From an uncultured Armatimonadia bacterium (GTDB lineage Bacteria; Armatimonadota; Zipacnadia; CAVVLO01): a stretch of DNA of 64,000 nucleotides. A program made the position numbers and the translations under genes. Shown here piece by piece: positions 5,641-61,314 of this stretch. Within the stretch, counting starts at the first letter, position 1. Each line of letters begins with the position of its first letter. Location: assembly GCA_963749155.1 (NCBI GenBank), contig CAVVLO010000001.1:672001-736000 (forward strand), read 5' to 3'. Below the pieces are notes generated by a model, which was not told the origin of the DNA, searched no databases, and worked only from the letters and a program-made list of their open reading frames with translations.

Positions 5641-8418
5641 TCAAGTCCCTCCTCGGGAAGCTCTTTCAGCAACCGGATATAGTCCAGCTTCAGTTCAGCG
5701 CCAGGACGCCAGCTCGGATCGAACCTTAATCCCGTAATCGTACCCACCCAGCCAGGCAGAGCGCCCGTATCCAGCAGGTAGGTGTGATATTCACCATCGC
5801 GGGGTGCCTCTGCGTCAGCATATTGGCCCCCGAGAAGCCCGATGTAAGCGAGTTGCTGAAGAAAAGCTGCAATCCGTCAGGTTCTTCGCCCCCGCTCACT
5901 GCCATCCGGATGGCGACGTAGCGATACTCTGCAGCCGATATACTGATAGGCGGCCCCTGCAATACAGGGTCCTGACTGATAGCTCGCCCAACCAGCGCTC
6001 CATCGACCGGCTCCAGCTCCAAGCTTAGCCCTACTGTCCAGCCGTCCAGGCCTTCCTCGAACTCCCAGGCTGTCGCTCCGCCGAACTCTACCTCGCGCAG
6101 CGGCTGCCCCAGGTCAGCAGGAACCAAATCAGACGCCTTTGGCGCCTCTGGCGCTAGCGCCTGCTGGAAGGCATCCAGCATCGAAAAGCCCCACTCTCTG
6201 CCCGGCTCGCAGATTGACCCCTCGCCCCACTCATTCCAGGCCTCGGAGATTATCAGCTTGCCCGCCGGCCCCGTCACGCCGGTCCTCTCGACCAGGTCCA
6301 TCAGGGCCTGGAGATGTGCCTCCAGCGTCTCGGGCGTATACCCGACTCGCCACAGCGTGCTGTAGCCGTGCCAGGCGCGCGAATCCCACCCGCAGTTGGC
6401 GCTCGGGATATAGGGCAGCGCAGGCCCCTCTGGCGCCCTCGCGGAGCGCTCTATCAGGTCCTGATAGTCTTCGTTCATCTGAGTATAGGGTGCCCGCAGG
6501 TCGCCGCCAGTGTTCAGCCCGGCGCTGTTATAGTCCGAATCCGCATCGAACCCAAGCGCCTTCATCCGCTCGAGCCAGCTCTCCCGCGGCTGCCCGCAGG
6601 CGATAAGATACAATCCTCCCAGGCCTGCGTCACGGCACTTCTGACGCAGCTCCTCAAGGGCTTGCCCGAGTACCTTCTTCTCCGAGCGCTGTGGCAATCT
6701 CCATCGGCTGGAATATCCAGATTGCGGGCTTGCCGTCAATCCGCAGGTAGTTATCCCGCTTGAAGTAGTTCTCAATCCAGAAGTCGCACGCGGCCAGTAG
6801 ATCTTCCCGGCTGTGACTGCCAGGCCCGTTGTGGTTGGCCCAAAGCAGCGCGAACTTCATCTGGTCCTGATATCTGGCGCCAAAGAAAGCCTCGTGCAGC
6901 CCATGTTCGAGCGTCCGCTGGCCCTGATTCCAGTACCAGTCGAAAATCCAGAAAGTGATTCCCCGCTCACGCGCCCACTTTATCTGCCAGTCCATTATCC
7001 ACGGGTCGCCCTCGGCGTAATAGCCAAGTAGAGGCTTGCGGTAGTAGTCCTTGATGGATTGCCATCGGTCGGCACTCGCCCATCCTGGGAAATAATAGCA
7101 ACCGACCTCCCAGTCCGTCTTGAGCGGCACCGGCTGTGGCACATAGTCGTTGCGGGCAAGGGTTGGGGAAGTAGAGTGAAGGCAATTTCGGCGTTCGTAG
7201 TGAAACTGCCAGCCTCCGAGCTGACTTCGACCTCCAGGCGCTTTGGGCCTGGTGACTCTGCAACCACCTGCCAGCTCGCCTCAGCCCGGTTGGCGTATCC
7301 GATAACGCCCACCTCTCGCAAGGCTTGCTCGCCTTCGGCCAGCCTTACCCCCAGGCCTGGCTGCAAGAGAAGCCGGACCTGCCCCGCCGGCTCCGCGCCG
7401 AAGTTGGCCAGGTTACACACAACCTTTGCTGGCCGGCCGACCCGATTTACCCCGCTGTCCTTGCCGAAGTAGAGCACCCTGGGCGAGGCTTGTCCAGTTG
7501 GCTCGTTCACAAAGGCCAACCGCTTCAACAGGAGGGTGCTGCCCGCCCCACGCGGAGGCCGGACACCGACCGAGCGCAAATCGCCTCTAATCGTGATTGG
7601 CAGGCACGCCGTGTAGAGCCGCCCATCTGCAGGCCAGGGATAAAGTAGTGTCTTCCTGCCCTCGCCTGTCGAGGTCAGGTCCAGTTCTATTTCTGGCCCG
7701 GCCGTTGTCGCCGCCTCGATCAGCACATAGCTGCCAGTTTGTGTCTCCGGCTGAAGGCAGGCTGTTATCAGGGAAAGCTGCGCGTTCGAGGTTAGCTTCA
7801 GCCCCTCAGGTCCTTGCGAGCTGCTCTCGAGGCCTTCGGCGGCGGTCCACAGCGCGTGCTTCAGTCGGGTTCGTGAAATCCCAATCTGCACTGGGAGAGG
7901 CAGTTAAAGGAGTCTGCCGGCTCGACGAGGCGTACCCACTCCAGACCGAACTCATACCGCCCGGCGACCGGGTCCACCCGCAACTGAACTACCTGCGGCG
8001 CGCCATCCCACCAGGTCCAGGCGCCATACTCGTGCCACTGGCCATCGCCCTGGACCCGGATATTGATCGCTTCGGAAGGTTCAAAACCGCCAAAGGGGCC
8101 TTCGTGATCCGGTGCCCAAAAGACCTGCACATCGCCCACGACACCACTTTTCAGCCGAAGCTCGATCCGCTGCATCGGGCCGGTGGTGATGGGCTGCTCG
8201 GGCAATATCAGGAGGGGATCATCGTTCACCACGCGCCCAATAAGCGCGCCTGCCTCCAGGCGGACGTCCTGCAGCGATCCCGTGCCCCACTGCCCAAGCG
8301 CCCCGGGCGTCGAGAAGTCCCATTGCGCGACCGTGCGCCACTCCAGGGCCCGCGCCGGGTGTCCAAGGCCAAGAATTACAGCAAACACCAAACCAAACCA
8401 GATTGAAAAACTCTTCAT
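5637..8418 (-). CDS. Secreted multidomain GH99-like glycoside hydrolase, copy 2 (about 4 indels)
   Basis: ORFs 7861-8418, 6995-7891, 6654-7142 and 5726-6775 plus a tail ending LDYIRLLKELPEEGLE* at 5637 are collinear with copy 1 and carry the same motifs. Confidence 0.7.
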
Positions 8419-20098: not shown

Positions 20099-20132
20099 AT
20101 TGTGATGCTTCAGCAGGTTATCTTTTGCCGGT

Positions 20133-22833
20133 TTGTGTGGTGTAATAACAGATAACCTGGCCGTTATATCTGCAAGAAAAGGGCCCGTGGGGGAGCGCCC
20201 CAATTTGCTGGATGTGACCTTGTCCTATCTGGTTGCGGTTGCCTTATCTCTGCTGCTCGCGGCGATCTATCTCCTGCGAGCCAAACTGGGTCTTGTCCCC
20301 TTCTTGTTCATCTCTGGCGCGATTGAGTTAGCTGTCCTCACCACCTTCGGCGAGGGAGAAAGCCTCGATAGCAGCGCGCTTATCTTCCTGCCTGTTTTCC
20401 TTAGTGGCTTGCTGCTGTTTCTTGCGGGTGAACCTGCGGCTATCTCTCAGCAGTTATTGATGGCGGTTGGATTGCTCGGGGTAATCGCGGTGGGGGCTGA
20501 CCTTTGGGTAGATACTGCCAGTAAAGATGGCTTTATCGCGATGTTGCACTCACTGCCTCAGCGCGCGCATATCTTCTTGTTGCTGACCCCCCTGACCGCG
20601 CTTCTGGCTTATTCGGTAGCCTGGCATTTATTTCAAAAACTGCCCATCTTGCCTCTGGTTGCCGGGCTAGGCGCTGGATTAGCCTGTAGTCTGACCTGGC
20701 TGGTTGTGCATCTGCCACAGCAACTCCCTGACGCTGCCCAGCCAACCTGGCAGTTGTTGCTGCTCACTTTTGGAGCAGGCTTCTGTCCTTCTGTTATCGT
20801 AGCGATTTTTGCACGAGGTTTTCTTGCAAGGCGAGTTGGGGCTGGACTGCCCCCACCCCCCCAGGATTTGCTTGATATTGCTTTGCAGAAAAAGGCCCGG
20901 CTCGAAGGCCTTACCGTAGACAGCCAAAAACAGCCTGCGGTTGCCGCAGTCCTGGCTGAAGGGATGGCGCTTACAGATAAGGAAGGCCAACTCGTTTATG
21001 TAAATGGCCCTTTCCAGAGCCTTTTTGCGAAGGCTGAAGATGCCTTGCTGGGCCAGAAGGTTGCTGATCTGGTTACTCCCCGCTGGCAGGACACCGTCAC
21101 TTCGGCTCTGGCTTCGCTGATGGCAGGTTCGCTTAACCATATTGTCCTGACCGTTGAACTGGCCGATGGCGATGAGCCACGCTGGATAGAGCTCAGTGTT
21201 GTGCTCGCCGGGCCTGAACTCGCCCGGCAAGGTTTCTGCCTGTGGCTCGCCCAGGATATCACTGATCGCCAGCAGCTGAACTCCCAACTCGTTCGCTCCA
21301 ACTACGAACTCACGACTATCACGGGGTTACTCGCCGCGCTGCTCAATTCAACCGACAGCCACTATATGATTGTGAATGCTACCAAGCAGCTCGCCCAGCT
21401 ACTTGGGGGCGATTTTTGCGGTTTTTACCGAGTCGACTGGCTTGAAGGACTGCTTACCCTTGAATGGGAGCAAGGCCATACTCCAGAGGTTGTGGAAATC
21501 GTAAAGGAGATCCGGCTTGGAGAAGGTTTTTCTGGCTGGGTGGCTGCAACCAGTACCCCTGTCGTCATCGGCGACATAGTAACCCACCGCAAGCTTGTCA
21601 CGCCTTTGCTTGCCAAGAGTGGCATCCACAGTTATGCAGGGGCTCCTTGTGTATATGGGGGCAGATGCTTAGGCGTAATTTTCGTTTCCAGCCTGCGACC
21701 TAATGCGTTTAACTCGGTAGGTCAGGACTTGCTGCAGCGGCTTGGAGAGCTGGTTGGCCCAGTACTCCATCGAGCCGAACAGCTCGAGGCTCGTTCTGCA
21801 CAACTTGCCGATCTGACAGTCGCGCTCGAAGAATGTGGTAAGGGCGTCCTATTGCTTGACGGCCATCTGCGCGTGCTCTACGCCTCTGAGGAAGTCGCTG
21901 GCTTGCTGAATATACCGGTGTCTGAACTGACAGGCAGCTCGGTGCGCTCTATCGAGTTGCATAGCCTGGGAGAGAAGGTTGCCACTCTGGCTCAACATGC
22001 CCTGGAGTCCGAGGGAGAGACCAATGGCCGGTGGCAATTTGGCCGCCCTGTACAAAATTACCGGCTTACCTGCAAGCCTGTTGGCTCTGTCGACCGGCAA
22101 CGCGTCCTGGTACAACTGACCCTCGCTGATCAGCCTTACCAGACGGCTGCTCCCCCTGAGGGTATCCAGCGCATGGCAGTCATATCGTATTTCAGCGCCA
22201 GCATCGAGCATGAGTTAAACAACCTGCTCGGGCCACTCCAGTTGCGCCTGGAGCTGCTTGATGCGCGCGAGGAACTATCGCCCGAAGCCATCGAGGATGT
22301 AGAAGAAGCCCTCGCCAGTGTCGAAGACCTGAAGGCTTTCCTGGCCGAGCTAGGCGCTTTGATGCGGCGCGATGGCCTGCAACCTGGAGCCAGTGAATCT
22401 CGCGGATGTCGCCCGGGCGGTGCTGCTGCTTTGTGGGGCGGAAGCCCGGCGTATGCAGGTTTCTCTTAAGCTGGAGGTACCTGATGATCTGCCACCGGCT
22501 AACGCTGACCCCCTGGCCTTGCAGGAGTTGCTACTCAACCTGGTCTCCAATGCTTTCGATGCGATGCCCGAGGGAGGAACTCTTACCGTACTCGGTCAAG
22601 AAACGGGAGAGTGGGTGCAACTCCTGGTTAGCGATACTGGGCAAGGCATCGCCCCTGAACATCAGGCTTTTATTTTTGAGCCCTATTTCAGCACAAAGGG
22701 CCAGCAAGCTACCGGCCTTGGCCTTCACGTCTGCGCCCGACTGGCCGAGGAGATGGGCGGACGTCTAAGCCTCGAAGGCGCGCCGGGCGAAGGCGCTACT
22801 GCCCTTCTTAGCCTTCCGAAGGCCCTTCCCTAG
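20133..22833 (+). CDS. Membrane sensor histidine kinase (TM-PAS-GAF-PAS-HisKA-HATPase), indel near 22370
   Basis: HELNN H-box; NLVSNAFDAM, DTGQGI, FEPYFSTK, GLGL in ORF 22372-22833. Start uncertain. Confidence 0.85.
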
Positions 22834-28840: not shown

Positions 28841-29842
28841 ATGAAGTTCATACTATCTTCCGTAGGTTCCGCAACGCACCCTCGCACAATACTCGCTACC
28901 GGATGGCCAGACCGAGTGCTGTTGTTGGGTACCGTCCTCCTGCTCCTGGCCAGCCTTGTCACGGCCGATGACGACCTTGTCATGCTGAGAACACAGCTTC
29001 AGCAACTCCAGACTCGGATCGAGGCACTGGAGCAGGCCAACCAGGCGCTCCACCAGCAACTCACTGTCGACAGGCTATTGGTGAAGCAGGAACTCATCAT
29101 CTCCGACACCGGCCAGCCGTGGGAGCAAGGCTTCGAGACCCAGGAGATCCCTCGCGGCTTCTACGCTCGTTCACAGTGGGACGGCGGCTCAGCGGGTCTC
29201 TGGGTGCGTAGCAGACTCATTAAGGGGGAGCTCGATGATCCTTTCGATGACCGGTTCCACGCACTCAATCGTGACGGCACCCTCACGGGCGTGCCGGGAC
29301 ATATCTCGTGGAACGTTTGGTTAGATGGCACATGGCGGCAGATGGTTCTCATCGAGGGCGGTGGGGTCGACTACTCCGAATTGCCCCTCGCCCAGTGGTC
29401 GGGTGCAAGCCATCCCGGTCGCCTTCGATTCCTCTCGTTCCGCCCTGATCACGACGAGCCATTGACTGACGCCCTTATCGGCCAAGGGATGATGTCACTT
29501 GGTGGCGGGGGTTATGGCGGGGAAGGGCTACCATATCCGAAGCAGGTCCTCCAGCTCTGGGGCGGCTCGTTGACCCAGTTTCCAGTGGCAACGCCCAGTA
29601 AGCCAAGTACGTTGAGCGACGACGGTTCTGGGCCACACACTTATTCCATCATCGCTGTAGGCCCTCAGGGAGAGCGGTCAGCCCCTTCGCCCGCAACGCA
29701 GGCAGACGGGCTGGCAACGCTACGATGGGGCGATGCAGCAGGTGCCGATTGCTATGTTGTGCTACGCGACGGAGAAGAAGTCTCGGGCTTCCTGTACTTG
29801 GAGGGCAAGACGAAAGAGTGGACCGACCAAGGCTCACACTAG
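28841..29842 (+). CDS. Hypothetical exported protein (coiled coil, C-terminal FN3-like segment)
   Basis: Hydrophobic leader, LQQLQTRIEALEQAN coiled coil, YSIIAVGPQGERSAPS; GGGGAG upstream. Confidence 0.6.
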   Translation: MKFILSSVGSATHPRTILATGWPDRVLLLGTVLLLLASLVTADDDLVMLRTQLQQLQTRIEALEQANQALHQQLTVDRLLVKQELIISDTGQPWEQGFETQEIPRGFYARSQWDGGSAGLWVRSRLIKGELDDPFDDRFHALNRDGTLTGVPGHISWNVWLDGTWRQMVLIEGGGVDYSELPLAQWSGASHPGRLRFLSFRPDHDEPLTDALIGQGMMSLGGGGYGGEGLPYPKQVLQLWGGSLTQFPVATPSKPSTLSDDGSGPHTYSIIAVGPQGERSAPSPATQADGLATLRWGDAAGADCYVVLRDGEEVSGFLYLEGKTKEWTDQGSH

Positions 29843-30025
29843 GGCTGCTAGCAGGGGTCCTTCGACATGGCTCAGGACAGGTGTGGGGTATGACCCCCAC
29901 GCCTTCCGCCCTTCGCTGTGAATTCCCGATCCTTTTAGTCTGATTTAGCCTTTATCTTTCTGGGTAGAAACCCAGTGGCGGGCAGTTGCGTATATAATAG
30001 ATATAGTGGAAAACGGAGGTGCGAG

Positions 30026-30160
30026 ATGGCAGCTCCTGCTTCGAGCAACCAGATGCCACTTGCGCGTTGGGGCTTGCTGCTGGGCCTCTCTCCTTGGCCT
30101 GGGGCTGCCCGAGGCCCTGCCTCTGCTGCGGAAACGTCTCGAAGGAGGCCACCGAGATGA
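30026..30160 (+). pseudogene. Possible remnant of the 5' end of a thioredoxin-like gene
   Basis: GGAGGTGCGAGATG...MPLARWGLLLGL resembles GGAGGTCGCGCGATG...LPLWRFSLLLAL at 33182, and both precede a pilin pair. Confidence 0.35.
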
Positions 30161-30903
30161 CCCTCAAACGCAGGCTTAACGCTTTCACCCTGGTAGAACT
30201 GCTGATCGTAATCGCCATCCTGGCGGTGTTGGCGGGCATACTTTTCACCGTCTTCGCCCCTGCGAAGGAGAAAGCCCGCCAGACGCAGTGCATCAGTAAT
30301 TTGAAGCAAGTGGGGATGGCAGTCCTGCTCTACAGACAAGACTACGATGGGCAGTGGCCTGCAAGCCTGCGGCACGTGTATGCTGGCTATGTCTCTTCTC
30401 ATAAGATGCTCGTGTGTCCTGACGACGGAACAAGCGAGGCGCAGCGCGCGGAACAAGAGGCAGCGACCCACGCGCCATACTGCAGCTATGACGCCAGCGA
30501 TGGGCTCCCGCGCATCTCGGGGGTCAGAGTAGCCAAGCTGCTGGCCCAGCAGGATGTATCCTGTGACGAGCTGGCCACGGCCATCCTCTACCACCGTCTA
30601 GCAGAACCGGTTGCCTTTGACTGCCTGTATCCGGCATGTGGCGCCCGGCGCACCCGACATCGTTGCGGCTCTGACAGACGACTTCCTGCGCGGTGATGAT
30701 CGGTCGGTACTATTGGTGCTGGAACAGGACGGCCGAGGGACTGCATGCGCATCATTCCAATCTCGGGCCAGAGCAGATGGTGTCTATAGCGTCAGCGTAC
30801 GCTGCCTGGAGTGACTGCACCTGAGGAGTGGCTAGCGATGCTGGCTGAGGTAAAGGATGCCTTCTAACATGCGCCGAAGCAGGGTTGCGAGGAGGAGGAG
30901 TGA
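30157..30903 (+). CDS. Prepilin-type N-terminal cleavage/methylation (DUF1559-like) protein P1; indels and an in-frame TAA near the end
   Basis: NA|FTLVELLIVIAILAVLAGILF; CPDD; CIRH...LEQDG in the shifted frame; ends KQGCEEEE* at 30903 like its paralogs. Confidence 0.75.
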
Positions 30904-30904
30904 G

Positions 30905-31644
30905 ATGACAAAACGGGGTTTCACCCTGGTAGAACTGCTGATTGTAATCGCCATCCTGGCGGTGCTGGCGGGCATACTTTTCACCGTCTTCGCCCCCGCG
31001 AAGGAGAAAGCTCGCCAGACCCATTGTATGAACAACCTCAAGCAGCTCGGGGCCGCCATCCTGCTCTACAAGACGGATTATGATGGGGGCTGGCCACGAG
31101 CGCTGCGGGAGACTTACCCGCAGTATGTATCGAGCGATGAGGTGTTCGTGTGCCCAGATGACGGCGCCACCTCGGATATGCGCGAGTCTTTCAGGGCCGT
31201 TATACGGCCTCTACCTGCTCATACGGCAGGTGCGGCGGTGATTCCTGGCCCTCTCTGTCCGGCGACGGCCTGCGGCGCGCCTTGGCCAGTCCAGTACGCG
31301 ACTGCAGACCATATCGCTGCCGAGATGATAGCTGCGATTACGCCTCGCGCTTCCCGCTGCTGATGTGCTACTACCACTTGCTGCCTGGGAGCGACCCCGA
31401 CAAGCACGAGTGGCACCAACTGCTGCATGATAACGATGTCCACTCCGTCATCCCCACGCTGAACCAGGACGGCAGTGTGCAGTTCATCACCACTCCGGGC
31501 AGGTGGGGCCGGGCCATCGTCCCAGCGCTCCACAACCACCTGGGACTAACTTCGGGGCAGTGGTTCGCCCTGCGAGACAAGTATATCCAGAAGGCCATCG
31601 ACCAGGGCTTGTGCGACAACGATGAGGGCGAGGAGGAGGACTAG
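30905..31644 (+). CDS. Prepilin-type protein P2 (indel(s) near 31200-31290)
   Basis: RG|FTLVELL; VFVCPDD; RFPLLMCYYHLLPGSD...TLNQDGSV; ends GLCDNDEGEEED. Confidence 0.8.
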
Positions 31645-31647
31645 TCT

Positions 31648-32367
31648 ATGCGTAATCCTTTGATGCGACTCTCCGGGCGGGTGAGGCGCTGGCTGATTAG
31701 AGGACTGCTCTCGGTGCTCGTGCTGGCGGCGCTCTCAGGGCTCGGTCTGCTTGGCTGGAAGCTCTTCTACCCCACCACTACAGCCGGCCATCAGGAGGCC
31801 TGCATAAGCAACCTGCACCAGCTCAGTATGGCCATCTTCGCCTATAAGCAGGACTGGGGCAAGTGGCCGTATGGCTTCAGAGCTTTCTATCCTGCTTACC
31901 AGCGCGACTCGTCAGTGCTGCTCTGCCCCGACGACCGCACCAGGCCTGAGCGACGCAAAGAGCTCGAGGCCACTTTTGGCGCCTACTCGAGCTATCTGAC
32001 CTATGGGGGAGACCTGCTTTACATTATCTCCCGGAGTGGGCGAGAGCTGTATTCGGAGTCTGACGCCGAGGGCTGGGCGTACTGGAAGACCTGCGAGCAG
32101 TATCGCAAGCAGATGCCCCTTTTCGTCTGTTATCACCATCTCCTTGGCTATCGCGTGGGGAGCGAGGAGGCGCTGCAAAAAGCTCTGGCGAAGGAGAAGG
32201 TCCATACGGTCTTCCTGAAGGTGAATCAGGACTCTCACGTCTCCCGCGTGAAGGTGCCTGAAGAGTGTCCTTACGCCGATGTCACGACTCCCTGGGGCGC
32301 CGCTGGCATCCCCGCCGACCAGTGGAAACAGACCTACCGGAGCTGGCTGGCGCAGGGGAGGGACTAG
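31648..32367 (+). CDS. Pilin-like protein P3 with non-canonical N-terminus (no FTLxE)
   Basis: Basic leader and TM segment, then CISNLHQLSMAIFAYKQD, LLCPDD, CYHHLLG...VNQDSH homologous to the P1-P7 heads. Confidence 0.75.
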   Translation: MRNPLMRLSGRVRRWLIRGLLSVLVLAALSGLGLLGWKLFYPTTTAGHQEACISNLHQLSMAIFAYKQDWGKWPYGFRAFYPAYQRDSSVLLCPDDRTRPERRKELEATFGAYSSYLTYGGDLLYIISRSGRELYSESDAEGWAYWKTCEQYRKQMPLFVCYHHLLGYRVGSEEALQKALAKEKVHTVFLKVNQDSHVSRVKVPEECPYADVTTPWGAAGIPADQWKQTYRSWLAQGRD

Positions 32368-32439
32368 CAGCCTGCGCGCCTGGGCGGTATAATGAAGCCA
32401 CTGAGAGACTCTCGACAACCAGGAGGCCCCGAGTTTTAG

Positions 32440-33031
32440 ATGACGTCGCAGACCAGGAAGAAGACTTCGGTCCTGTTTTGGGTAGTTATCCTGCTGGGCC
32501 TGGTGGCCCTGGGGTTCTTCCTGAGGCCCCCGGCGGGCGGAGACAAACCCCCTGTCGCTTCTCAAACCGAAGCCCAGTCAGGAGCAGGGGGGCCTGGGGC
32601 GGTGACCGTTACCCTTATCAAGGACCCCGAGCCGGGTGAGGCCGCGCCCGCGCGCCTGGCAGAAGCCCTTGCCAAGGTGGCGCCCGAGGGCAAACCAGTA
32701 GTGCTCGTGATTATCGGAGACTGCACCGATTGCGCCCTCAAGTATCTAAGAGAGTGGAACAAGTTTGCCGCCGAACCCGGCGCGCCTGTCCATACTGGTG
32801 CTGACCCCAAGCCTTGAAGAGCAGCTTGCGGCGTTCAGGGCCAAGTATCCAGAGATTAAGTTGCCCTTGCTGAGAGAGCCGTATGACGAGTTGGACCTGG
32901 AATTGAATGTCCTCTTCCGACCGCGCGTCTATCTCTACGGGTCGGGGCTGCTCCTCGATTATGTGCAGGCCGATGGGATCGAACCTTTGAAGGCGCTGGA
33001 GCAAGTCCGGGCGCGCCTTACCGGCAGCTAA
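32440..33031 (+). CDS. Membrane-anchored thioredoxin-fold protein T1 (CTDC), indel near 32790
   Basis: N-terminal TM; GKPVVLVIIGDCTDC; LNVLFRPRVYLYG at the cis-Pro loop position. Joins ORFs 32440-32817 and 32765-33031. Confidence 0.65.
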
Positions 33032-33181
33032 GGAGCAGGCGGCAGTTGTTTAGCGCGCGGTGGCTTAATATACTGTTGCTCATTATTTATAATATTTAAC
33101 CTTGCAAAGCTAGTGACAAAGCTGGGCGGGGGGATAGACTGTTAAGTGAAGCAAAGTTCTGGCAGTGTTGGAGGTCGCGCG

Positions 33182-33812
33182 ATGACCCAAGCCCAGAGCC
33201 TTTGGAAAGAACGCCTCCCCCTGTGGCGATTCAGCCTGCTGCTCGCTCTGCTTATTGTTTCTCTCATCGTATTCGCGCGCGTCTCCAAGGCCACTCCAAC
33301 GAACCCCCTGTTCAAGCTTAAGCAATTCGTGCTGGAGCAGAAGCAGCAGCACCAGCAGAAGCTGGACCTCGAGCGCGACCCCACTCTCTGGCCAGCCAAG
33401 GCCCGAAGGCCTGACCCAGTGGCTCGCGCAGCAGGGGCTCGCGGGCAAGCCGCTGGCGCTGCTGATGATAGGCTCCTGCAGCGAGTGCGCCACAAGCTAT
33501 CTCAAGGCCTGGAGCGACTTCGCCGCGCTGCCCGGCGCGCCGGCGGTGGTGGTCTTCGCGGCCAGTGAAGAAGCCCAGGTCGAGGTTTTCCTCGCAAAAC
33601 ACCCTGAGCTCAACCTGAAGCTGAAGGTGGCGCCATATCCGGGGCTGGAGAAGGAGCTCAACGCCATCTTCCGGCCCCGCGCCTACTACTACGGGGCGGA
33701 TGGCGCGCTGGGGTGGCTTCAGGGCGACCACACCGACCCCTGGGCGACGCTTGCAGAACTGAAGGAACGGCTCGGACTGGCCGGGGAGGGCAAGGCAGAT
33801 GCGCAAGACTAG
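33182..33812 (+). CDS. Membrane-anchored thioredoxin-fold protein T2 (CSEC), indel near 33395
   Basis: N-terminal TM; GKPLALLMIGSCSEC; LNAIFRPRAYYYG; paralog of T1; overlaps the P4 start. Confidence 0.65.
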
Positions 33813-34506
33813 AGGTTTCACCCTTATCGAGTTGCTGATCGTGATGGCTATCCTGACCCTGCTGGCGGGAATCCTCTTCACCGTCTTCGCCGGCGCGAAG
33901 GAGAAAGCCCGCCAGACCCACTGTATGAATAACCTCAAGCAGCTCGGGGCAGCCATCCTGCTGTATAAGCAGGATTATGATGGTGGCTGGCCAGAGTTCG
34001 CGTGGCAGACCTATCCGCAGTATGTTAGCGACAAGGCGCTGTTCGTCTGCCCAGATGACGGCACAGCATCCAGTATCCGTAAGTCCTTCGAGGCCCGACA
34101 CGGCGCCTATGAATCGTATGCGAGAGGCGGGGGAGACCATCTCCCCATATTGTCTGGATTGTTTCTCCGCCAAGCCGCGATCCCGGAGACCGATTGCGGT
34201 TCGCGGGCGATGGCTTTGGCCAGCTGGCACTACCACGATCGATACCCGGTGCTCAGGTGTTTCAATCATCTGTTCCCAGGTAGTGACTGTGACTCCCGCG
34301 CGTTCGACAAGCTGCGAGAGACGCAGGAGGTGCGCGGCGTGATACCTACGCTGAAACAGGATGGCAGTATTGTGATGGAAATCGTGCCTTCTCGTTACGG
34401 ATCGAACCCCTTGGCGGGAAGTGTTGGTGCCCACATAACTGGCAAGGAATGGATGGATGTGCTGAGAAGCTACAAGGAGCAGCTTGGGTGTGAAGAGGAG
34501 GATTGA
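33799..34506 (+). CDS. Prepilin-type protein P4 (head type A)
   Basis: Intact 235-aa ORF, RG|FTLIELL, ends KEQLGCEEED. Confidence 0.88.
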   Translation: MRKTRGFTLIELLIVMAILTLLAGILFTVFAGAKEKARQTHCMNNLKQLGAAILLYKQDYDGGWPEFAWQTYPQYVSDKALFVCPDDGTASSIRKSFEARHGAYESYARGGGDHLPILSGLFLRQAAIPETDCGSRAMALASWHYHDRYPVLRCFNHLFPGSDCDSRAFDKLRETQEVRGVIPTLKQDGSIVMEIVPSRYGSNPLAGSVGAHITGKEWMDVLRSYKEQLGCEEED

Positions 34507-34507
34507 G

Positions 34508-35242
34508 ATGGCAAAGCGAGGTTTCACCCTTATTGAGCTGCTGATTGTGATGGCCATCCTGACCCTGCTGGCGGGAATCCTGTTCACCGTCTTCGCCGGC
34601 GCGAAGGAGAAAGCCCGCCAGACCCACTGTATGAACAACCTCAAGCAGCTCGGGGCAGCGATCCTGCTCTATAAGCAGGACTACGATGGGGGGTGGCCGC
34701 AGTCCAGGCACTGCTCGCTGTTCCCACACTATGTTCAGGACCGAGCAGTGTTCGTCTGCCCAGACGACGCAACCGACTCGAGAACACGCGACGGCGCTAG
34801 AGGCGCGCTGACGGCGCTGTACTGCAGCTATACGCGGGGTAGAGGCGACTACCTTCTGCGGTTGTCTGGATGGGAGTATGAGCGGGTGACAGCCAGTGCG
34901 AACTGTGAGCTCAAGTTCGCCATGCTGTCAACCCAACCCTTCACCTCCCGATTCCCGATGTTGGTTTGTCGCTGGCATCTCCTGCCCGGATCGGATGTGC
35001 TCCGTGCTGAGTTCACGCAGCAGATAGAGACGGCCAGAATTCAAGCACCAATACTGAAGCTGAACCAGGATGGCAGCGTAGTCCGGTGGATGGTACCCAC
35101 ACAAACCGGGGGCTACGAAAACGCTGACACCACTCTGGGCGTCATAGCCTATAGCCGAGAGGAGGCCGCCACTGCTCGCAGGAGGGCAAGAGAGCTCCTG
35201 CGGGCCCAGGGCGGCTGCGACGACTTTCTGAACAGGAGGTGA
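34508..35242 (+). CDS. Prepilin-type protein P5 (head type B)
   Basis: MAKRG|FTLIELL; GAGGAGG RBS; ends GGCDDFLNRR. Confidence 0.88.
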   Translation: MAKRGFTLIELLIVMAILTLLAGILFTVFAGAKEKARQTHCMNNLKQLGAAILLYKQDYDGGWPQSRHCSLFPHYVQDRAVFVCPDDATDSRTRDGARGALTALYCSYTRGRGDYLLRLSGWEYERVTASANCELKFAMLSTQPFTSRFPMLVCRWHLLPGSDVLRAEFTQQIETARIQAPILKLNQDGSVVRWMVPTQTGGYENADTTLGVIAYSREEAATARRRARELLRAQGGCDDFLNRR

Positions 35243-35249
35243 GAAGACT

Positions 35250-35590
35250 ATGAGAAGGCTCGATGTCTGCAACCGTCGTGTATGTAGTGCTGGTGGCAGT
35301 GGCGCTCGGCGTATTTGGTCTTGCCATCATTGCGTCGGCCGACGACTGCATACACTACTACATGTGTGGTCCAACGTACAACACATGCTGCGTTAAAGGG
35401 GTGCACCTACACGTCTTTCGGCTCGTATGACGTGGTGAGCTGCTACGAGATGATCGGGATAGGTGGTATAACTATCGCTTGCTACAAGAAAGTGGCGGAT
35501 GCGATCAATCCCTCGTGCCCGACGCCGCCACACCTGTGCACGGACGGGAAGTATGAGCAAGTGACAGGGCATTGCTCGGAGGACTGGTAG
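35250..35590 (+). CDS. Cys-rich secreted miniprotein C1 (10 Cys; extra G near 35400)
   Basis: GGAGGTGAGA RBS. Reconstructed ...VAVALGVFGLAIIASA|DDCIHYYMCGPTYNTCCVKG-CTYTSFGSYDVVSCYEMIGIGGITIACYKKVADAINPSCPTPPHLCTDGKYEQVTGHCSEDW*. Start is 35250 (needs a further indel) or 35263. Confidence 0.7.
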
Positions 35591-35611
35591 CGACACGGAC
35601 CAGAATAACAA

Positions 35612-35680
35612 GAGCAGGGGGACGGTGGGTCCCCTGCTCCACCTCTCTCCGGCCAGGCGCGCTACGAGGAGGCGCAAATG
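35612..35680. repeat. Cassette-boundary repeat copy 1 (GC hairpin plus RBS spacer)
   Basis: GAGCAGGGGGAC-GGTGG-GTCCCCTGCTC-CACCTCTCTCCGGCCAG...GCGCTACGAGGAGGCGCAAATG. Confidence 0.85.
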
Positions 35681-36387
35681 CGCAAAGACGAGGTTTCACC
35701 CTTATCGAGCTGCTGATCGTGATGGCCATCCTGACCCTGCTGGCGGGCATCCTGTTCACCGTCTTCGCCGGCGCGAAGGAGAAAGCCCGCCAGACCCACT
35801 GTATGAACAACCTCAAGCAGCTTGGGGCAGCGATCCTGCTCTATAAGCAGGACTACGATGGGGGGTGGCCTAAGGATCTGGCCCGGATATACCCGCATTA
35901 TGCGAACAGCTCTGCAGTGTTCGTATGCCCTGACGCGGTTGCGACTGCTGAGGAGCGAGAAGCTGCCCACCGCAGGAAGGGACTCTTCGTGTCGTATGAG
36001 CGCCTTGGGGGCTCCGCCTTGGGTGCGCTGTCCGGCGAGCAACTTGACCGGGTTCTTCGAACTCCTCAGTCGAGCTGTCTGGACAAGGTCGTCGCCTATG
36101 TGACGAACGATGTCGCCAGCAGGCTCCCGGTCCTGTGGTGCGTGGATCACCTGCTCCCTGGCGAGAACTGCATGCGCACAGGCTTCAGGGAGCGCGTGCT
36201 CGAGAACAACGTGCGGGGGGTGATGCCGACACTTGAGCAGGATGGGAGCGTGATAGTAGTGGCAGTGCCGACGCGGTACGATCCCAACCCCTTCGCGTTC
36301 AACGCGATGGCTAGAATGACAGGGCACGAGTGGCAGCGCTTAGTCGACTCGTGGAAAAAGCAGCTTGGTTGTGAGGACGAGCAGTAA
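35678..36387 (+). CDS. Prepilin-type protein P6 (head type A; indel in the first codons)
   Basis: ATG 35678 follows GAGGAGG as in P7; RG|FTLIELL in ORF 35572-36387; ends KKQLGCEDEQ. Confidence 0.82.
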
Positions 36388-36411
36388 GCTTGCGAATTGG
36401 AGGTGAGACAA

Positions 36412-36760
36412 GTGAGAAGACTGTCTGTTGCAACAATGCTGTGGTTCGTCCTTCTGGCGCTGGTGTTGGGCGTGCTCGCGCAGCTTGTGCTTGCGGACGA
36501 CTGCACAGGTACCCACTGGCTCTGTGGCACCTGGTACGACACCTGTTGCGCGCGTGGGTGCAGCGTCGAGTATTGGGATCCCATCGATTTCCAGATCTCG
36601 TGCCACGAGGTAGATATCAATGTGGGTTACGTCACGTACACGGGCAAGTGCGTCGAGTATCGGGACACAGCAAATCAATACACCTGCCCTACGCAGGAGC
36701 CTCCGTGCAACCGCACACACTGGTGGTTCTGGCCCATGGAATCCTGCCTAGGCAACCTAG
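36412..36760 (+). CDS. Cys-rich secreted miniprotein C2 (10 Cys)
   Basis: GGAGGTGAGA RBS, GTG start; MRRLSVATMLWFVLLALVLGVLAQLVLA|DDCTGTHWLCGTWYDTCCARGCSVEYWDPIDFQISCHEVDINVGYVTYTGKCVEYRDTANQYTCPTQEPPCNRTHWWFWPMESCLGN. As sequenced it reads on to 36843; the likely true stop is the out-of-frame TAG at 36758-36760. Confidence 0.75.
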
Positions 36761-36832
36761 GCAGGGGGACGGTAGGTCCCCCTGCTCCACCCCTCTCCCG
36801 GCCAGACCGCGCGCTACGAGGAGGCGCAAATG
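36761..36832. repeat. Cassette-boundary repeat copy 2
   Basis: GCAGGGGGAC-GGTAG-GTCCCCCTGCTCCACCCCTCTCCCGGCCAGACCGCGCGCTACGAGGAGGCGCAAATG. Confidence 0.85.
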
Positions 36833-37564
36833 CGCAAGACTAGAGCTTTCACCCTTATCGAGCTGCTGATCGTGATGGCCATCCTGACCCTGCTGGCAGG
36901 AATCCTGTTCACCGTCTTCGCCGGCGCGAAGGAGAAAGCCCGCCAGACCCACTGTATGAACAACCTCAAGCAGCTCGGGGCGGCGATACTGCTCTACAAG
37001 CAGGATTATGACGGGGGGTGGCCGCCGGAGGCACGCGCTCTCTTCCCTCATTATGTAGCTGATAAACAGGTCTTCGTGTGTCCAGACGACTGCACCCCCC
37101 AGAGAGAGCGCCGACGGATAGACGAGACATACACGCCCTATTGCAGCTATGACCGGGGTACTGGCGACTACCTGCCGACTTTATCGGGGTGGGCCCTGGA
37201 GCAGGCAATGGCTTCCTTCAACTGCGACCTGAAGGCCAAAGCCCTGGCCGAGCGAGCCTTCCTGGCCCGGCTGCCGGTACTTGTCTGTCTCTGGCACCTG
37301 CTGCCTGGCGCAGATGTGCCTGCTGTGGATTTCAACCGACGCCTGGTTGAGGCGGAGATACAGGCTCCAGCTTTGGTTCTCCGCCAGGATGGGAGTGTGG
37401 ATCGCCTGATGGTTCCATCCGAGACAGGAGGGTACCTCGACGGCATCCGCGGTACCGGTGTGCATGGCTACACGCTGGCAGAATGGATCCCAGCACTTAA
37501 ACGAGCCAGAGAGCAACTGCGCGCGTCGGGTCACTGTACAGATGAAGAAGAAGAGGGGAGGTGA
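36830..37564 (+). CDS. Prepilin-type protein P7 (head type B)
   Basis: Intact 244-aa ORF, MRKTRA|FTLIELL, ends GHCTDEEEEGR. Confidence 0.88.
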   Translation: MRKTRAFTLIELLIVMAILTLLAGILFTVFAGAKEKARQTHCMNNLKQLGAAILLYKQDYDGGWPPEARALFPHYVADKQVFVCPDDCTPQRERRRIDETYTPYCSYDRGTGDYLPTLSGWALEQAMASFNCDLKAKALAERAFLARLPVLVCLWHLLPGADVPAVDFNRRLVEAEIQAPALVLRQDGSVDRLMVPSETGGYLDGIRGTGVHGYTLAEWIPALKRAREQLRASGHCTDEEEEGR

Positions 37565-37572
37565 GAAAGAAG

Positions 37573-37665
37573 GTGAGAGAGTTGAAGAAACTCGCTTGCC
37601 CCGACGGCGAGCCGCCCTGCACTCTCACAAAGTGGGAGTTCGAGATCTGGGGAGAGTGCGACTGA
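37573..37665 (+). pseudogene. Internally deleted third Cys-rich miniprotein C3
   Basis: GGAGGTGAGA RBS then VRELKKL-ACPDGEPPCTLTKWEFEIWGECD*, which matches the last three Cys of C2 (CPTQEPPCNRTHWWFWPMESC). Confidence 0.65.
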
Positions 37666-37679
37666 GCCTAAAAAAACAA

Positions 37680-37720
37680 GAGCAGGGGGACGGTAGGTCC
37701 CCCCTGCTCCACCCCTCTCC
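37680..37720. repeat. Cassette-boundary repeat copy 3
   Basis: GAGCAGGGGGAC-GGTAG-GTCCCCCCTGCTC-CACCCCTCTCC, preceded by an A-run. Confidence 0.85.
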
Positions 37721-37831
37721 TGGACGAAGTCCAGAAGAATTCTATTTCTATTTAAATTATACCACCAAGCTGCGTACACGCAAGCCCTCTCTTTTTCCCG
37801 CAAGAAGGCCTCTCCAGTTGGTTTTTGAGGG

Positions 37832-37940
37832 GGGCCGGTGCTGTGTTACACTCTCTTTTATGTACCTGCCCAGTGGCGAGAACCTGAAAAAGTGGAAGCT
37901 GTGCCCAAGCGAGAGGCCTCCTGGTTGCTTTGCTGCTTGT
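37832..37940. repeat. ~110-bp diverged direct repeat copy A (promoter and 5' end of the Grx-CcdA gene)
   Basis: GGGCCGGTGCTGTGTTACACTCTCT...GAGAGGCCTCCTGGTTGCTTTGCTGCTTGT matches 43444-43553. Confidence 0.85.
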
Positions 37941-37987
37941 GCCCGGCCCTTGCAGTCTAGACGCAACAGCAGACGTTTGGAGGAACG

Positions 37988-39762
37988 ATGAGAAGTTTGA
38001 TGCTCATTGAGTTGGCCATACTGGTCGCATATATTCTCGCGTTCACCACCACTCTTGGGCTTGCTGCTTCCGAGGGCAACGAACCCGGCAGACCCTCGGC
38101 GCCCTTGCAGGCTAGTGCAACGGAAAATTCCGCCTCTTTCATCAAGGTCACCCAGGCCGACGGAGTATTCGTCAAGCAGCCGCTGGTTCGATCCAGTCAC
38201 TATGACGAGAAGCTAGCCAGCCAAAATACAGCACGCATCAAGGCCATCATGAGCTCCCCGGCCATCAGCCAATATTGCCGAATCTACTTTCCGGCAGGGG
38301 CCTATTATTTCAACGGCGCCGCAACTGGCTGGAACGCCAGCATCCAGTCTACTGCCAAGTACCAATCTTTCACTGGCGATGGGATCAATGCTACTCGCCT
38401 TATTCAGAAAAGCCTGGATGTCCCAGCCACAATCAAGCTCAGCCATAGTAACTGCACAATCCAGGACTTATCAATTATGTCTTCTGATTACCAGCAGGAT
38501 TTCAATGAGGATTGGGACAAGCACCCGCATCAGACGGCAATCGCACTGGAGTCTTCAGCCTTTACGCATACCGATCCGCAGATATTGAATGTCAACATCA
38601 ATACCAGCGGAAACAACATTATCATCGATGGATTCTTCCGTCCCTTCAAGACAGGCATAAGGATCACCGGCCCGTGGTTCAATGTCTATGCGCACACAAT
38701 GTTTATGTTGTATGTCCACAATGCTATCTATGTAAACCAGGGCAATATGTGCGGGGGCCGGCAAAGTTCCTGGATATCAACGCGTACGCCACCTCTCCTC
38801 ATACGGAGAAGCCAGTTACCCAGACCTGGAACACGTTCTTCAAGAGTGAAGGGCATTTCATGGAGCAGGTCGAGCTTATCCACTGCACTTATATAGGCTC
38901 TCAGTTCATCTGCATGGATGGCGCCAAGCTCTCCCCGGGTGACGATAACTCTACCAAGACGGCGACTACCCCGGTTTACAACATGATCGTGGATCATTGC
39001 TACATAAACTCACTCTGGCTACCGTCACCCTCGGAGGAGGCGAAGTGGTCAGGTATTTACTTGAATCTGCCGCCAAGGCCAGGAGGTATTGAGCCGGGAT
39101 TTGGCACGGAGCTTTACAGCAGGCAGGTAGTCTTCACCAACAATACCTGTATGGGCAAGACCCCGCGCAACGGAGCGTTTTTCTACATCGAGGGCAACGT
39201 TAGAGATGTAACACTTCAAGGTAATCATATTGCCTCGGGAGGAGGAGATCGCTGCATCTATATTCGGGCCACCCGCCCGTTCCTGGATACAGATGTAGCG
39301 GTGCGTGATATCAAGATCTCCGATAACTACTTCGAGGATTTCCAGGCGCCGATTACGATCGGAGGAAACAAGCAAGATCTATCACGAACCAGTAACAACG
39401 CAGGCCAGGATGATGATCCTTACTGGGTCGAAGGCGTGACGATTACCGGTAACAGGTCTTACTATTTGCCGGTCACAGAGAAGTATCAACTTACGGGTAT
39501 TCTCTTGAACCGCGCGCGGCGTGTCCTTGTGCAGGCCAACACACTCGCCAGGACCAGTGGATCGTCGGTCATCCTGAACGAGTGCGAAGACATCATAATG
39601 CAGGACAATATGTTCGCTGGTCTTGCTGATATGGGCGAGAACGGGATAGTACTGCAGAAATGCAAGACGGCTATTTTGATCGGAAACATAACGCGCGGTT
39701 TTCGGCATGGGATTTTACAGCAGGGCTCCGAGAACGTGACGCTCGCAAACAATTTGGAGTAG
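37988..39762 (+). CDS. Secreted right-handed parallel beta-helix (pectin lyase-like) protein, indel near 38755
   Basis: Signal peptide; IYFPAGAY, GDGINATRL; repeated (I/V)TGN/QGN/QDN turns. Joins ORFs 37988-38896 and 38512-39762. Confidence 0.75.
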
Positions 39763-55964: not shown

Positions 55965-56217
55965 CCCCTTTGTGGGCGGTGCGGCCAAAAGGGGCTACAA
56001 AGGCGTAAAACGGCGTAACAGGGAGGTAACCAACGGTTGTAAGGATGGGAGATCCACTTGGAAACAACCCCCCCTTGCGTGAATACCTGCGCTACAATAG
56101 TATTGGTAAGGTGGAGAGGAGAGGGCCTGTTGCACTTTGTTAAACGAATATTAAGTGCATTGGGCGCTCGAGCGCGCTTGTTGCTTAGCGACTGCGGGGC
56201 GCGTTGAGGCGGCTTAT

Positions 56218-58618
56218 ATGTCCGAAGTACTTACACAACCTGCTGTCGAGATACTGCTGCTGAGTCTTATCACGGTCTTGGCCCTGTGGGCCATGCATGT
56301 CCAGGGATTACGCAAACAGATAGCCGATAAACGTAATGAGATTGCGCGGCAAGAAGACCAGGTTGTTCAGCTCCAGGCCGAACGCGCCGCCATGCGCGGT
56401 GATGTGCTACTTGCAGATGAAGCCCTGAGACACACCAGTTGCGCTCTGGTGGCATGCGACAAGAAGGGGCGCCTCCTGCTTGCCAATGAGGCAGCCGAAG
56501 CGCTGCTTCACCTCGATGTACAATCTACCAACCTGCTGGCGCCCGAGTGGCTCAACCATTTCCGAAGCGAACTGGTTTCCGATGTTGCCGGGCAGGAAGC
56601 TTTGCTTCCTCATATGCAGGTCCTGAACGGCAATGGCCAGGCAGCTTCTTCTTCCGCGCTGGTACAAGACAAGGCCCGTTCCGGCTGGATAGAAATATAT
56701 GCCTGCCCTCCGCGCAGAGGCTGCCAGGTGCCTGCGAGTGTCTTCTTGCAGGCCCATGATGTCACCGAGCAAATCCAGCGCCAGCTCGAGCTGGGTAAAG
56801 AGATTGCCCGATGGCAAGAGCTTATCAACGATCTTCCCGCCCTGGTATGGATCTCGGATGCCGATTTTGGGCTGCTGATGGCCAGCAAAGAATGGGAAAG
56901 TGTGCTTGGCCAAAAGCCCGAAGCAATGCTTGGCCAGGCCTGGCTCGAGCTGGTGCATCCGGTAGATTTACCCGACCTTAAACAGCAATGGCGCGAAGCG
57001 GCGCGTACCCGGACCAGCCTCGATCTCCAACTCAGGCTTCGCAATGCTGAAGGAGACTGGCGCTGGTTCAGGATGACAGGGCACCCTCAAGGGGAGCCAG
57101 GCAAAGGATTTGCGGGTTTTGTGGGGTGTTGTCTGGGTTCTGATGTTGCAGGTCAGGGCGGAGACGAACTCGGGATGTACCGGATTATCGCCGATGGGCT
57201 TGGCGAAGCGATGCTTATCATTGATGAGGATGGCTTTGTACTGCATGCCAACCGGATGGCCGAGCGGCTTTATGGATGCAGCCGCGAGCAGCTTATTGGG
57301 ACCAAGATCCAGGAACTGCGGGTCGAAAATACAGGGCCAAGCCTGTCCGATATCGCCACAACCGCGGGGGCTGAAGGATTGCTTTACGAAGTGCGCCACA
57401 AGCGCCTGAATGGAGCAGTCTTTACCGCCGAAGTACGCAGCAATGTAATAGAGCTGGGTGGCAAGCAGTTCTTCATTGCCTTTGTGAGAGATGTAGGGCC
57501 CAGGCGCGCCGCCCAGGAAGAGCTACGCGAGGAGCGAGAGCGCTTCCATGCCGCCCTCCAGTCTGCCGGGCAATCCTACCTCTCTGCTGGAAAACCACCA
57601 GCTTCGATTCGTAAACCAGGCTATGACTGAGTGCTTTGGGCCATATAAGGGCCAGCCTTGTTATAGTTATCTGCTGGGCTCTGCCAAACCCTGCGCTGGT
57701 TGCAGGACTGATAATCCTGCCTGCGAGCAAGCCTCTGCCAACGGAGTATGGGCTTCTCCCGATCAAGCTCGCTGGTATAAGGCAAGCGTTACTCGCTTGC
57801 GCGTTTCGGCAGGCACTCCGGAGTTTCTCCTCGTGTTGCATGATGTCACAAAGGCACGTGAGGACGAAGAGGCCTGGAGACTTACGAATGAAGCCCTCGA
57901 GGCAAGAGTCAACGAGCGGACAGTGCAGCTTCAAGAGGCCAACAAGGAGCTTGAAAGCTTCGCTTATTCGGTATCTCACGATCTGCGCGCTCCGTTGCGC
58001 ACTCTGAATGGCTTTTCGAAGATACTGCTGCGCCAGCCAGATGAGAGCCTGAGCGACCAAACGGTCCATTATCTGGAGCTTATCAACAAGAGCGCCCTGC
58101 GGATGGACCAGCTTGTGTCGGGCCTGCTCGAGTATTCCAGGACAGGCCGGGCTGCGATGCATCCTGATTGGGTAGCGCCTGATGGCATAGTGCAGGAATT
58201 GATGGAAGAACTGGGGATGCAATATCCAACAGCCACAATATTGGCCGAAGCTCTGCCCCGTTGCTGGGCTGACCGTCAGTTGCTGCGGCAAGTACTGCAA
58301 AACCTGCTCGGTAACGCTTTGAAGTTTTCCTCCAAGCGTTCTGATGCGGTCATACAGGTCGGTGCCAAGCGGAACGGCGAAGAAGTTATCTATTTTGTCA
58401 GCGACAATGGAGAAGGCTTCGACCCCACCTATTCTGACCGGCTCTTCCGGGTATTCCAGCGTCTGCACACTGAAGAGGACTACGAGGGCACAGGGATAGG
58501 ACTTGCCATAGTTGGAAGCATCATCACCAGACATGGTGGTCGAGTCTGGGCAGAATCCAAACCGAACGAAGGCGCTACTTTCTTCTTCACCCTGCCAGGG
58601 GGAGAACATAATGGCTGA
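56218..58618 (+). CDS. Multi-PAS sensor histidine kinase (Cph1-like kinase core), indel near 57580
   Basis: One TM, several PAS domains (WLELVHPVD...WRWF), SVSHDLRAPLR, FQRLH, GIGLAIV. Confidence 0.88.
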
Positions 58619-61227: not shown

Positions 61228-61314
61228 GGAATTACGTTTCAGGTTAGAAGGAATCTGACCAACCAGTTATAACGAACGGTCTCGCGCTCCGTATGCGCGA
61301 AAAGGGTGAGTTCT

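Follow-up and report, generated by a model that had tools for sequence, protein, structure and literature searches.

The 64,000-nucleotide stretch of DNA analysed here (the window) comes from an uncultured Armatimonadia bacterium (assembly GCA_963749155.1, contig CAVVLO010000001.1, positions 672,001 to 736,000) and carries, between 30157 and 37710 on its + strand, an array built from three families of genes: P genes, which encode pilin-like proteins, T genes, which encode thioredoxin-like proteins, and C genes, which encode secreted miniproteins with ten cysteines. A preliminary description of the same DNA took the array for a candidate new system in which each pilin variant is paired with its own miniprotein. 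Here we examine what the three families are, how the array has evolved, and what it may do.

The order of genes and features is P1-P2-P3-T1, then T2-P4-P5-C1-hairpin-P6-C2-hairpin-P7-(C3 remnant)-hairpin:

30157-30811, + strand: P1, a prepilin-type, DUF1559-like gene (N_methyl E 1.9e-7), with a frame break near 30600 and a QDG-motif tail in the other frame
30905-31644, + strand: P2, a prepilin-type gene whose frame breaks somewhere from about 31200 to 31335
31648-32367, + strand: P3, an intact paralogue with a transmembrane (TM) anchor and no prepilin cleavage motif; weak DUF1559 match (E 0.0046)
32440-33031, + strand: T1, a TM-anchored thioredoxin-like gene with the motif CTDC and a frame break near 32785; related strains lack the gene
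33065-33093, + strand: a promoter-like site, so called from its consensus match alone (10 of 12 positions), at the start of the segment common to the second locus
33182-33812, + strand: T2, a TM-anchored thioredoxin-like gene with the motif CSEC, its frame broken by an extra base at 33383
33799-34506, + strand: P4, an intact prepilin-type gene (235 residues, 6 Cys)
34508-35242, + strand: P5, an intact prepilin-type gene (244 residues, 7 Cys)
35250/35263-35590, + strand: C1, a secreted ten-Cys miniprotein gene with frame breaks near 35262 and near 35392-35416
35612-35640, + strand: hairpin 1, a GC-rich stem with no U-tract
35678-36387, + strand: P6, a prepilin-type gene whose ATG, at 35678, is one base out of frame with its body, the break lying at about 35688
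36412-36750, + strand: C2, a secreted ten-Cys miniprotein gene with a GTG start; the assembled open reading frame (ORF) continues through the hairpin to 36843
36761-36785, + strand: hairpin 2
36830-37564, + strand: P7, an intact prepilin-type gene (244 residues, 7 Cys)
37597-37662, + strand: C3 remnant, in which ~22 codons at the end of a C gene are left and the 5′ part is deleted
37679-37710, + strand: hairpin 3, the end of the array (z -3.0)

The order, common strand and tight coupling reported in the preliminary description hold up on closer analysis: T2 and P4 overlap by 14 nt, P2 and P3 are separated by 3 nt and P4 and P5 by a single nucleotide, while the gaps between P5 and C1 and between P6 and C2 are about 20-24 nt. 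A GGAGG-type ribosome-binding site precedes every P gene, and the long minus-strand ORFs mirror the P genes. The deletion that had been read into C3 is real: what is left is a stretch of 92 nt that matches, at 94.6% identity, the end of a C gene and its hairpin in a second locus (below). An Rfam search of 29500-38500 returned no match. Intrinsic termination by the hairpins was considered and rejected, there being no U-tract after them on the + strand.

Three narrowly distributed protein families

The two ends of the P proteins tell different stories. At the N-terminus P1, P2, P4, P5, P6 and P7 match N_methyl (PF07963 / TIGR02532) over cut-off, with E values from 2e-7 to 3e-9; P3 gives no N_methyl match, lacks the G↓FTLxE prepilin site and has a plain TM anchor, although it keeps the body of the family (31% identity to P4 over the full length). 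Six P proteins score 26-31 bits against DUF1559 (PF07596; cut-off 23.3), a match confined to positions 3 to 31-36 of a profile of 268. Profile–profile comparison (hhalign) with 16 canonical DUF1559 proteins extends the relationship, at a probability of 100, to columns 1-108 of 238, corresponding to about the first 105 residues of the P proteins, where it ends after the CPDD...SY block; the remaining ~130 residues lie outside the alignment, homology to DUF1559 does not span the whole globular domain, and this last part of the head is specific to the subfamily. H-X9-DG is the name given to the C-terminal domain of DUF1559-type proteins: no NCBIfam row for that domain was obtained for the P proteins at E up to 0.1, and a loose 'H..PG ... 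QDGS' pattern was seen by eye only.

Comparison with the DUF1559 (SBP_bac_10) families of Planctomycetota, Verrucomicrobiota and Armatimonadota makes the same point. Common to both are the prepilin N-terminus, a conserved helix, the YP.YV..x.VF.CPDD...SY block and the presence of many paralogues per genome; where the P proteins depart is in the rest of the head, which shows no detectable relation, in their extra cysteines, and in an acidic tail after the last Cys. Excerpts of two papers describe DUF1559 as a large family of unknown function (PMC10632474, PMC5352709), the first of them counting 68 copies in one planctomycete; in several phyla the DUF1559-type proteins rank with the largest families of paralogues. 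With GspG, the major pseudopilin of type II secretion, and with type IV pilins the P proteins share the class III signal and the hydrophobic helix, but the heads are unrelated and no assembly genes lie nearby. The NCBIfam matches to GspG and other pilins all fall below threshold and are limited to the N-terminus; the best of them (TIGR01710, E 1e-8 to 1e-9) covers profile positions 1-56 only and reaches ~35 bits against an equivalog cut-off of 88.85. The Verru_Chthon cassette families TIGR02596 and TIGR02599, whose cut-offs are 70 and 256.5 bits, match the N-terminal motif with no more than 14-19 bits.

Within the array the constant N-terminus and divergent heads noted at the outset are plain: residues 1-65 of P4-P7 are 97-100% identical, the heads 31-50%. 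There are 6-7 Cys in each head, and in most heads a Cys followed by the acidic tail forms the end. When P4 was searched against 5.8 billion proteins 4259 scored, of which those from rank 16 down cover, with few exceptions, about a third of P4; full-length or head-bearing relatives outside the genome itself number eight (P0003, P0004, P0007 and P0009-P0013), on contigs of at most 2.2 kb. The head was not found in 400 other genomes of the phylum, and a scan of metagenome contigs with the head of P0009 confirmed nothing. The nearest DUF1559 homologues carry the names Capsulimonadaceae, Abditibacteriaceae and Armatimonadota, which suggests placement in the last-named phylum; arginyl-tRNA synthetase, whose matches reach just 37-46% and come from unrelated phyla, was uninformative on this point. 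Between P4 and an 84%-identical paralogue the ratio of non-synonymous to synonymous change (dN/dS) is 0.03 in the N-terminus and 0.17 in the head, which indicates that the P genes are functional and not drifting. In sum, the P proteins constitute a new subfamily of the known DUF1559 class.

C2, read from the GTG at 36412, encodes a precursor of 112 residues with a signal peptide ending ...LA↓DDC and a mature part of 84 residues with ten Cys; the junction in the family is A↓D(D/E/Q)C. The preliminary description saw a fixed Cys scaffold with unrelated loops. The ten Cys stand, two members displacing one Cys by a few positions, but to call the loops unrelated is too simple: mean identity is 63% over the first 22 residues of the mature protein (the C-x6-C-x6-CC-x3-C block), against 36% for the rest, which is variable except for a CP...PPC block. 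The family is rare. HMMER searches of 1.84 billion representatives found only five proteins, all on contigs of at most 1.2 kb; nine pattern matches in one genome for each of 185,579 species yielded none that could be confirmed; and no C gene was found in 40 genomes of the same class. One weak match from the same-class scan, in genome G005, was rejected as an unrelated corrinoid-protein region. An AlphaFold2 (AF2) model of C reaches a predicted local distance difference test (pLDDT) score of 84 despite a shallow alignment and consists mainly of a long beta-hairpin sheet. Against solved structures the best Foldseek E is 0.7 and the best Z of an all-against-representatives VIA comparison is 3.4, none of them convincing, and Atlas features gave no usable match. 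C is a new family, possibly with a new fold.

T1 and T2 are, as first described, membrane-anchored CxxC proteins: each has one N-terminal TM segment, followed by CTDC in T1 and CSEC in T2. CSEC is invariant in all rows of the T alignment that cover the motif, T1 having been aligned separately. Only four relatives were found among 5.8 billion proteins, and a scan of metagenome contigs with the T orthologue P0132 confirmed nothing. Evidence bearing on the fold comes from an AlphaFold model of P0132, in which the order of elements is beta-alpha-beta-alpha-beta-alpha-beta-beta-alpha and the CxxC sits at the junction of strand 91-95 and helix 100-114, the start of helix 1. When this low-confidence model (pLDDT 54) was submitted to Foldseek, nearly all rows shown were redox proteins of thioredoxin fold (DsbE, StoA, ResA, CcmG, DsbF and peroxiredoxins), the best being Mycobacterium tuberculosis (Mtb) DsbE, 1lu4, at E 1.5e-3; VIA gave Z up to 6.5 with ~95 residues aligned, which is below the level where chance arrangements end. 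The nearest neighbours in the features of a language-model Atlas are Thioredoxin, TlpA and Redoxin clusters, at 0.91-0.94. A thioredoxin-like fold is likely, judged by these models. Like the TlpA/ResA/CcmG/DsbE-type oxidoreductases, T has a single N-terminal anchor, a CxxC at the start of helix 1 and the predicted topology of the fold; unlike them it matches no sequence family, carries the unusual motifs CSEC or CTDC, and is coupled to pilin-like genes rather than to genes of cytochrome c maturation.

Frame breaks, a second locus and segmental exchange

A first issue is whether the array is intact. As assembled, six of the 11 genes are broken by single-base indels (P1, P2, T1, T2, C1 twice, and P6), and with the probable case of the C2 stop the breaks number eight in total. 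P1, P2, T1 and T2 switch frame once each; C1 switches just past its likely ATG (35250) and again near 35392-35416; and C2 has lost its stop as assembled and reads through into the hairpin, probably through an extra base at 36748. Taken at face value the breaks would mean that the array is decaying, and that most of its genes are pseudogenes or silent donor copies. The density of breaks is in keeping with such decay, being about eight in the 7.7 kb of the array, where the remaining ~56 kb of the window shows at least four genes that are clearly split. However, six of the eight are contradicted from outside: by contigs of related strains from four public runs (X1, X2, X4 and X20, at no less than 90% identity), by intact orthologues, or by the paralogous locus. 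Base 33383 of T2 is absent from contigs of X2 and X4 and from the T paralogue in the second locus, and T2 has intact orthologues of 209 residues (P0131 and P0132). In C1 both break sites are passed in frame by the intact orthologue P0124, and at 35392-35416 a contig of X20 shows a net change of -1 base; X20 also supplies an extra G behind 35688 in P6. Contigs of X4 and X20 differ from P2 by indels at 31306 and 31335, and the C2-like orthologue P0129 stops right after the last Cys. Moreover, two T paralogues that are 95% identical bear different private indels.

The frame breaks thus appear mostly to be errors of assembly, and such errors are not peculiar to the array. Genes elsewhere in the window are split likewise, into two overlapping frames with complementary Pfam matches – a phosphofructokinase, a WbsX-type glycosyltransferase and two histidine kinases (1903-2920 and 5729-7280 on the - strand, 20106-22830 and 56155-58615 on the + strand) – and since these include a housekeeping gene we attribute the splits to general indel errors. 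The higher density within the array could be explained by a repeated or heterogeneous region that polishes badly. Given also that dN/dS is well below 1, decay of the array is improbable.

A paralogous locus (L001) lies on another contig of the same genome (G000:C2, about 1,516,800-1,524,100; here C2 denotes the contig). Its order is T-P-P-P-C-hairpin, then T-P-P-P; the genes that flank it are different, and it too is interrupted by frame breaks. Between them the two loci account for every C gene of the genome, its four T genes and all nine matches to the P4 head. Individual junctions are found again in other assemblies: contigs of related strains bridge P2-P3-T2 (X4), P3-T2 (X1), T2-P4 (X4), C1-hairpin-P6 (X20) and P6-C2 (X4), while P0127 and P0007 carry mis-called extensions at the N-terminus that run across the end of a P gene, and across the end of a C gene with its hairpin, and so place the same P-C and C-hairpin-P junctions on foreign contigs. 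The multi-gene unit proposed in the preliminary description therefore recurs, both as a second locus and across independently assembled metagenomes, all of the bridging assemblies being close relatives and not independent lineages. The same contigs indicate that T1 is an accessory copy: in X1 and X4 it is missing, the end of P3 (32359/32367) being joined to the region upstream of T2 (33055/33059) with 8 or 20 other letters between. Contigs of X20, an RNA library, over P2, T2, C1-P6 and P7 were considered as evidence of transcription and rejected, because such libraries can contain DNA. Likewise, gaps in the cover of the stretch by these runs, and the small shares of matching words in 20 other runs, were not taken as signs of variability or habitat.

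An ORF of 100 codons, C′ (L001 13545-13844, + strand; G000:C2:1523545-1523844), sits between two P genes of the second locus; its signal peptide ends ...WA↓DVC, and it has seven Cys. C′ does not belong to the C family, and neither the genome nor the protein collection yielded a relative; it may be another miniprotein or a chance ORF.

Is the array simply one more cluster of DUF1559 paralogues, with C and T as unrelated neighbours? The genome certainly has such clusters: it contains some 30 further DUF1559-type genes (42 tblastn pieces), several of which form tandem arrays that lack C and T. Yet the P-head subfamily, T and C occur together at both loci and nowhere else in the genome; in three of three cases, counting both loci, where a P gene follows a T gene the two overlap; and the three families are equally narrow in distribution. 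An ordinary cluster is accordingly a very unlikely account. Two of the arrays without T or C, one of five genes (G000:C2:313859-318056) and one of four (G000:C3:399343-403629), match P4 mainly over the N-terminal ~100 residues, with two copies matching to residue 170.

Comparison of the two loci reveals how the array has changed. A shared segment that starts at about 33056 and takes in the promoter-like site, T2 and the 5′ end of P4 is 93-100% identical to the second locus; the heads that follow are ~55% identical. Further downstream, a tract of ~650 bases (35850-36500) that takes in the P6 head together with the opening third of C2 shares 98-100% identity with the second locus, and its flanks are more diverged, at 85-93% for the upstream 5′ segment of the pilin gene and 50-60% for the 3′ two-thirds of C. 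Between P6 and its counterpart in the second locus (L001-Pc) the 45 N-terminal codons differ by 11 synonymous and no non-synonymous changes, the 165 head codons by no synonymous and two non-synonymous changes. The constant N-terminus is thus old and held by purifying selection, and the near identity of the tract between old flanks shows recent copying of the P6 head together with the start of C, with a breakpoint inside C. That the array diversifies by duplication and recombination, as had been suggested, is substantiated by these mosaic tracts between the two loci.

A parallel of this kind is the pilE/pilS system of Neisseria, in which variable pilin segments are exchanged between copies via conserved flanks and the silent copies are promoterless and partial. 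The likeness lies in the recent conversion tract visible between copies. The differences are these: the copies here are full-length, each with its own Shine-Dalgarno ribosome-binding site and start codon, the tract carries part of C, and no single expression site is evident among them, so that one expressed locus with silent, promoterless, partial copies does not describe the array.

The mosaics also bear upon the pairing of P and C. The preliminary description had each pilin joined to one cognate miniprotein, so that a P head would bind the adjacent downstream C as tip ligand or adhesin and the pairs would co-diversify. The close spacing of P and C, the threefold occurrence of the P-C-hairpin unit, and the recurrence of its junctions on the foreign contigs of P0127 and P0007 are what strict pairing would produce. 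It does not, however, sit well with the P6 and L001-Pc heads, which differ by 2 residues in 165 codons and nonetheless adjoin C proteins only 59% identical overall, whose variable parts have diverged (50-60% identical at the DNA level). Nor does it account for the C3 remnant and hairpin 3 beside P7, which match the end of the C gene in the second locus at 90-100% identity though the upstream P genes differ – this end of C and its hairpin moves independently of the P gene before it – or for P1-P4, which have no C partner. Prediction of a complex between the P6 head and mature C2 gave 0.23, 0.33 and 0.89 in separate runs, with a control at 0.37, and counts neither for nor against binding. Strict cognate pairing is in our view unlikely; independent shuffling of P heads and C cores would seem to fit the mosaics better.

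Machinery in trans and the possible role of the array

The window contains no pilus machinery. Elsewhere in the genome, which scores as 100% complete with 5.87% contamination, there are one Peptidase_A24 (prepilin peptidase; G000:C2:912156-912542), seven T2SSE matches (PilB/PilT-like ATPases) and six secretins, in agreement with the earlier expectation that assembly functions would act in trans. Three secretin-domain genes lie within 4 kb of one another at G000:C2:1258252-1262262.

The situation with respect to disulfide bond formation is different. No match to VKOR, DsbB, DSBA, Thioredoxin_4 or MauE was found in the genome, and the T genes consequently look like private disulfide catalysts. 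A single DsbD_TM/CcdA-like gene is present (G000:C3:321700-322281, C3 being a contig). VKOR occurs in 231 of 401 sampled genomes of the phylum and in none of 49 from families of the same class; among the 30 best VKOR loci of the phylum not one has a pilin-like gene. A Cys-rich ORF at one such locus (L066) was judged spurious, as it has no signal peptide.

We propose that the array is a multigene locus, specific to its lineage and subject to recombination, which encodes exported envelope proteins rich in disulfides, with private T catalysts and with diversity arising by segmental conversion; we put the probability of this proposal at roughly 0.5. The P proteins would be pilin-like or pseudopilin-like members of the DUF1559 class, processed by the single prepilin peptidase and handled by pilus or type II secretion machinery in trans. 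The C proteins would be exported via Sec as beta-rich proteins of ~84 residues with five likely disulfides, translated just downstream of a P gene. T, a presumed thioredoxin-fold CxxC protein anchored in the membrane and translationally coupled to the next P, would serve P and C as a private periplasmic oxidase or isomerase; an isomerase fed by CcdA would suit clients with ten Cys. From the types of signal and the coupling of the genes we infer that P may enter a filament and that C may work with P at the surface, T acting on both. Diversity would come from gene conversion of segments, among cassettes as well as from one locus to the other, with the conserved 5′ segment of the pilin genes, the conserved 5′ part of C and the hairpin-leader as substrates of recombination, and because conversion would use just these segments P heads and C cores would be shuffled as separate modules.

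A number of observations weigh against this proposal. P, T and C are confined to one family-level lineage, and their linkage elsewhere is known only from close relatives. As assembled, six of 11 genes are broken, and for two of the breaks – those in P1 and T1 – there is no contradiction from outside. T has no Pfam or NCBIfam match at E up to 0.1, a sequence profile search of the PDB returned no thioredoxin hit for it at E up to 10, and the model of its fold is poor. T1 is dispensable in related strains. The genome has no DsbB- or VKOR-like partner that would reoxidise T, which leaves an oxidase without an electron acceptor. Lastly, a tract of 100% identity could in principle come from cross-polishing of paralogues during assembly.

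The same components could be arranged differently, with C proteins as secreted disulfide-rich toxins or bacteriocin-like effectors, T as the catalysts dedicated to their folding, and P as an export pseudopilus or as mere neighbours. There is precedent in sublancin, alongside which thiol-disulfide oxidoreductases are encoded, and the C proteins are small, Sec-exported, rare and hypervariable in their C-terminal two-thirds, with T genes in both loci. But neither locus has an immunity-like or transporter gene; T is coupled to P genes, not to C genes; the P heads are rich in Cys as well; and the C model matches no known toxin or bacteriocin fold, the best Z being 3.4 and that of laterosporulin 2.9, which is at chance level. 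We regard a toxin function as rather unlikely. The proposal of an envelope locus can be taken one step further, in that the two loci may form a combinatorial surface repertoire of an environmental bacterium in which pilin-like heads and ten-Cys cores of an unseen fold are shuffled independently of each other and private catalysts stand in for the missing Dsb system; this extension we offer tentatively, as a possibility that is well short of even odds.

Soluble proteins of type IVb pilus operons that are exported with the help of a minor pilin, namely TcpF and CofJ, provide a final point of comparison. C resembles them as a small protein with a Sec signal encoded beside pilin genes; it differs in having no similarity to them in sequence or fold and in being far smaller and disulfide-rich. 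In the literature searched we found no described system of this architecture, which accords with the preliminary description. New here are the P subfamily, which belongs to the known DUF1559 class, and the C family; T is a divergent and probably thioredoxin-like protein.

The locus gives one DUF1559 subfamily two defined partners: one is secreted and has ten Cys, the other is a thioredoxin-like enzyme. The organism, having no recognisable general disulfide machinery, offers a simple setting in which to test folding of C and P by T, while the mosaic tracts exemplify how the modules of a pilin-like family are shuffled in nature beyond the pathogens. The C proteins, whose confident model resembles no solved structure, are candidates for a new fold.

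Two further genes of the window are of note. Directly after the array, at 37961-39759 on the + strand, is a gene for a beta-helix (NosD-like) protein, split in two frames, within a patch of reduced G+C content (0.517 against about 0.60). A protein with a PEP-CTERM sorting motif is encoded at 61273-61890, also on the + strand.

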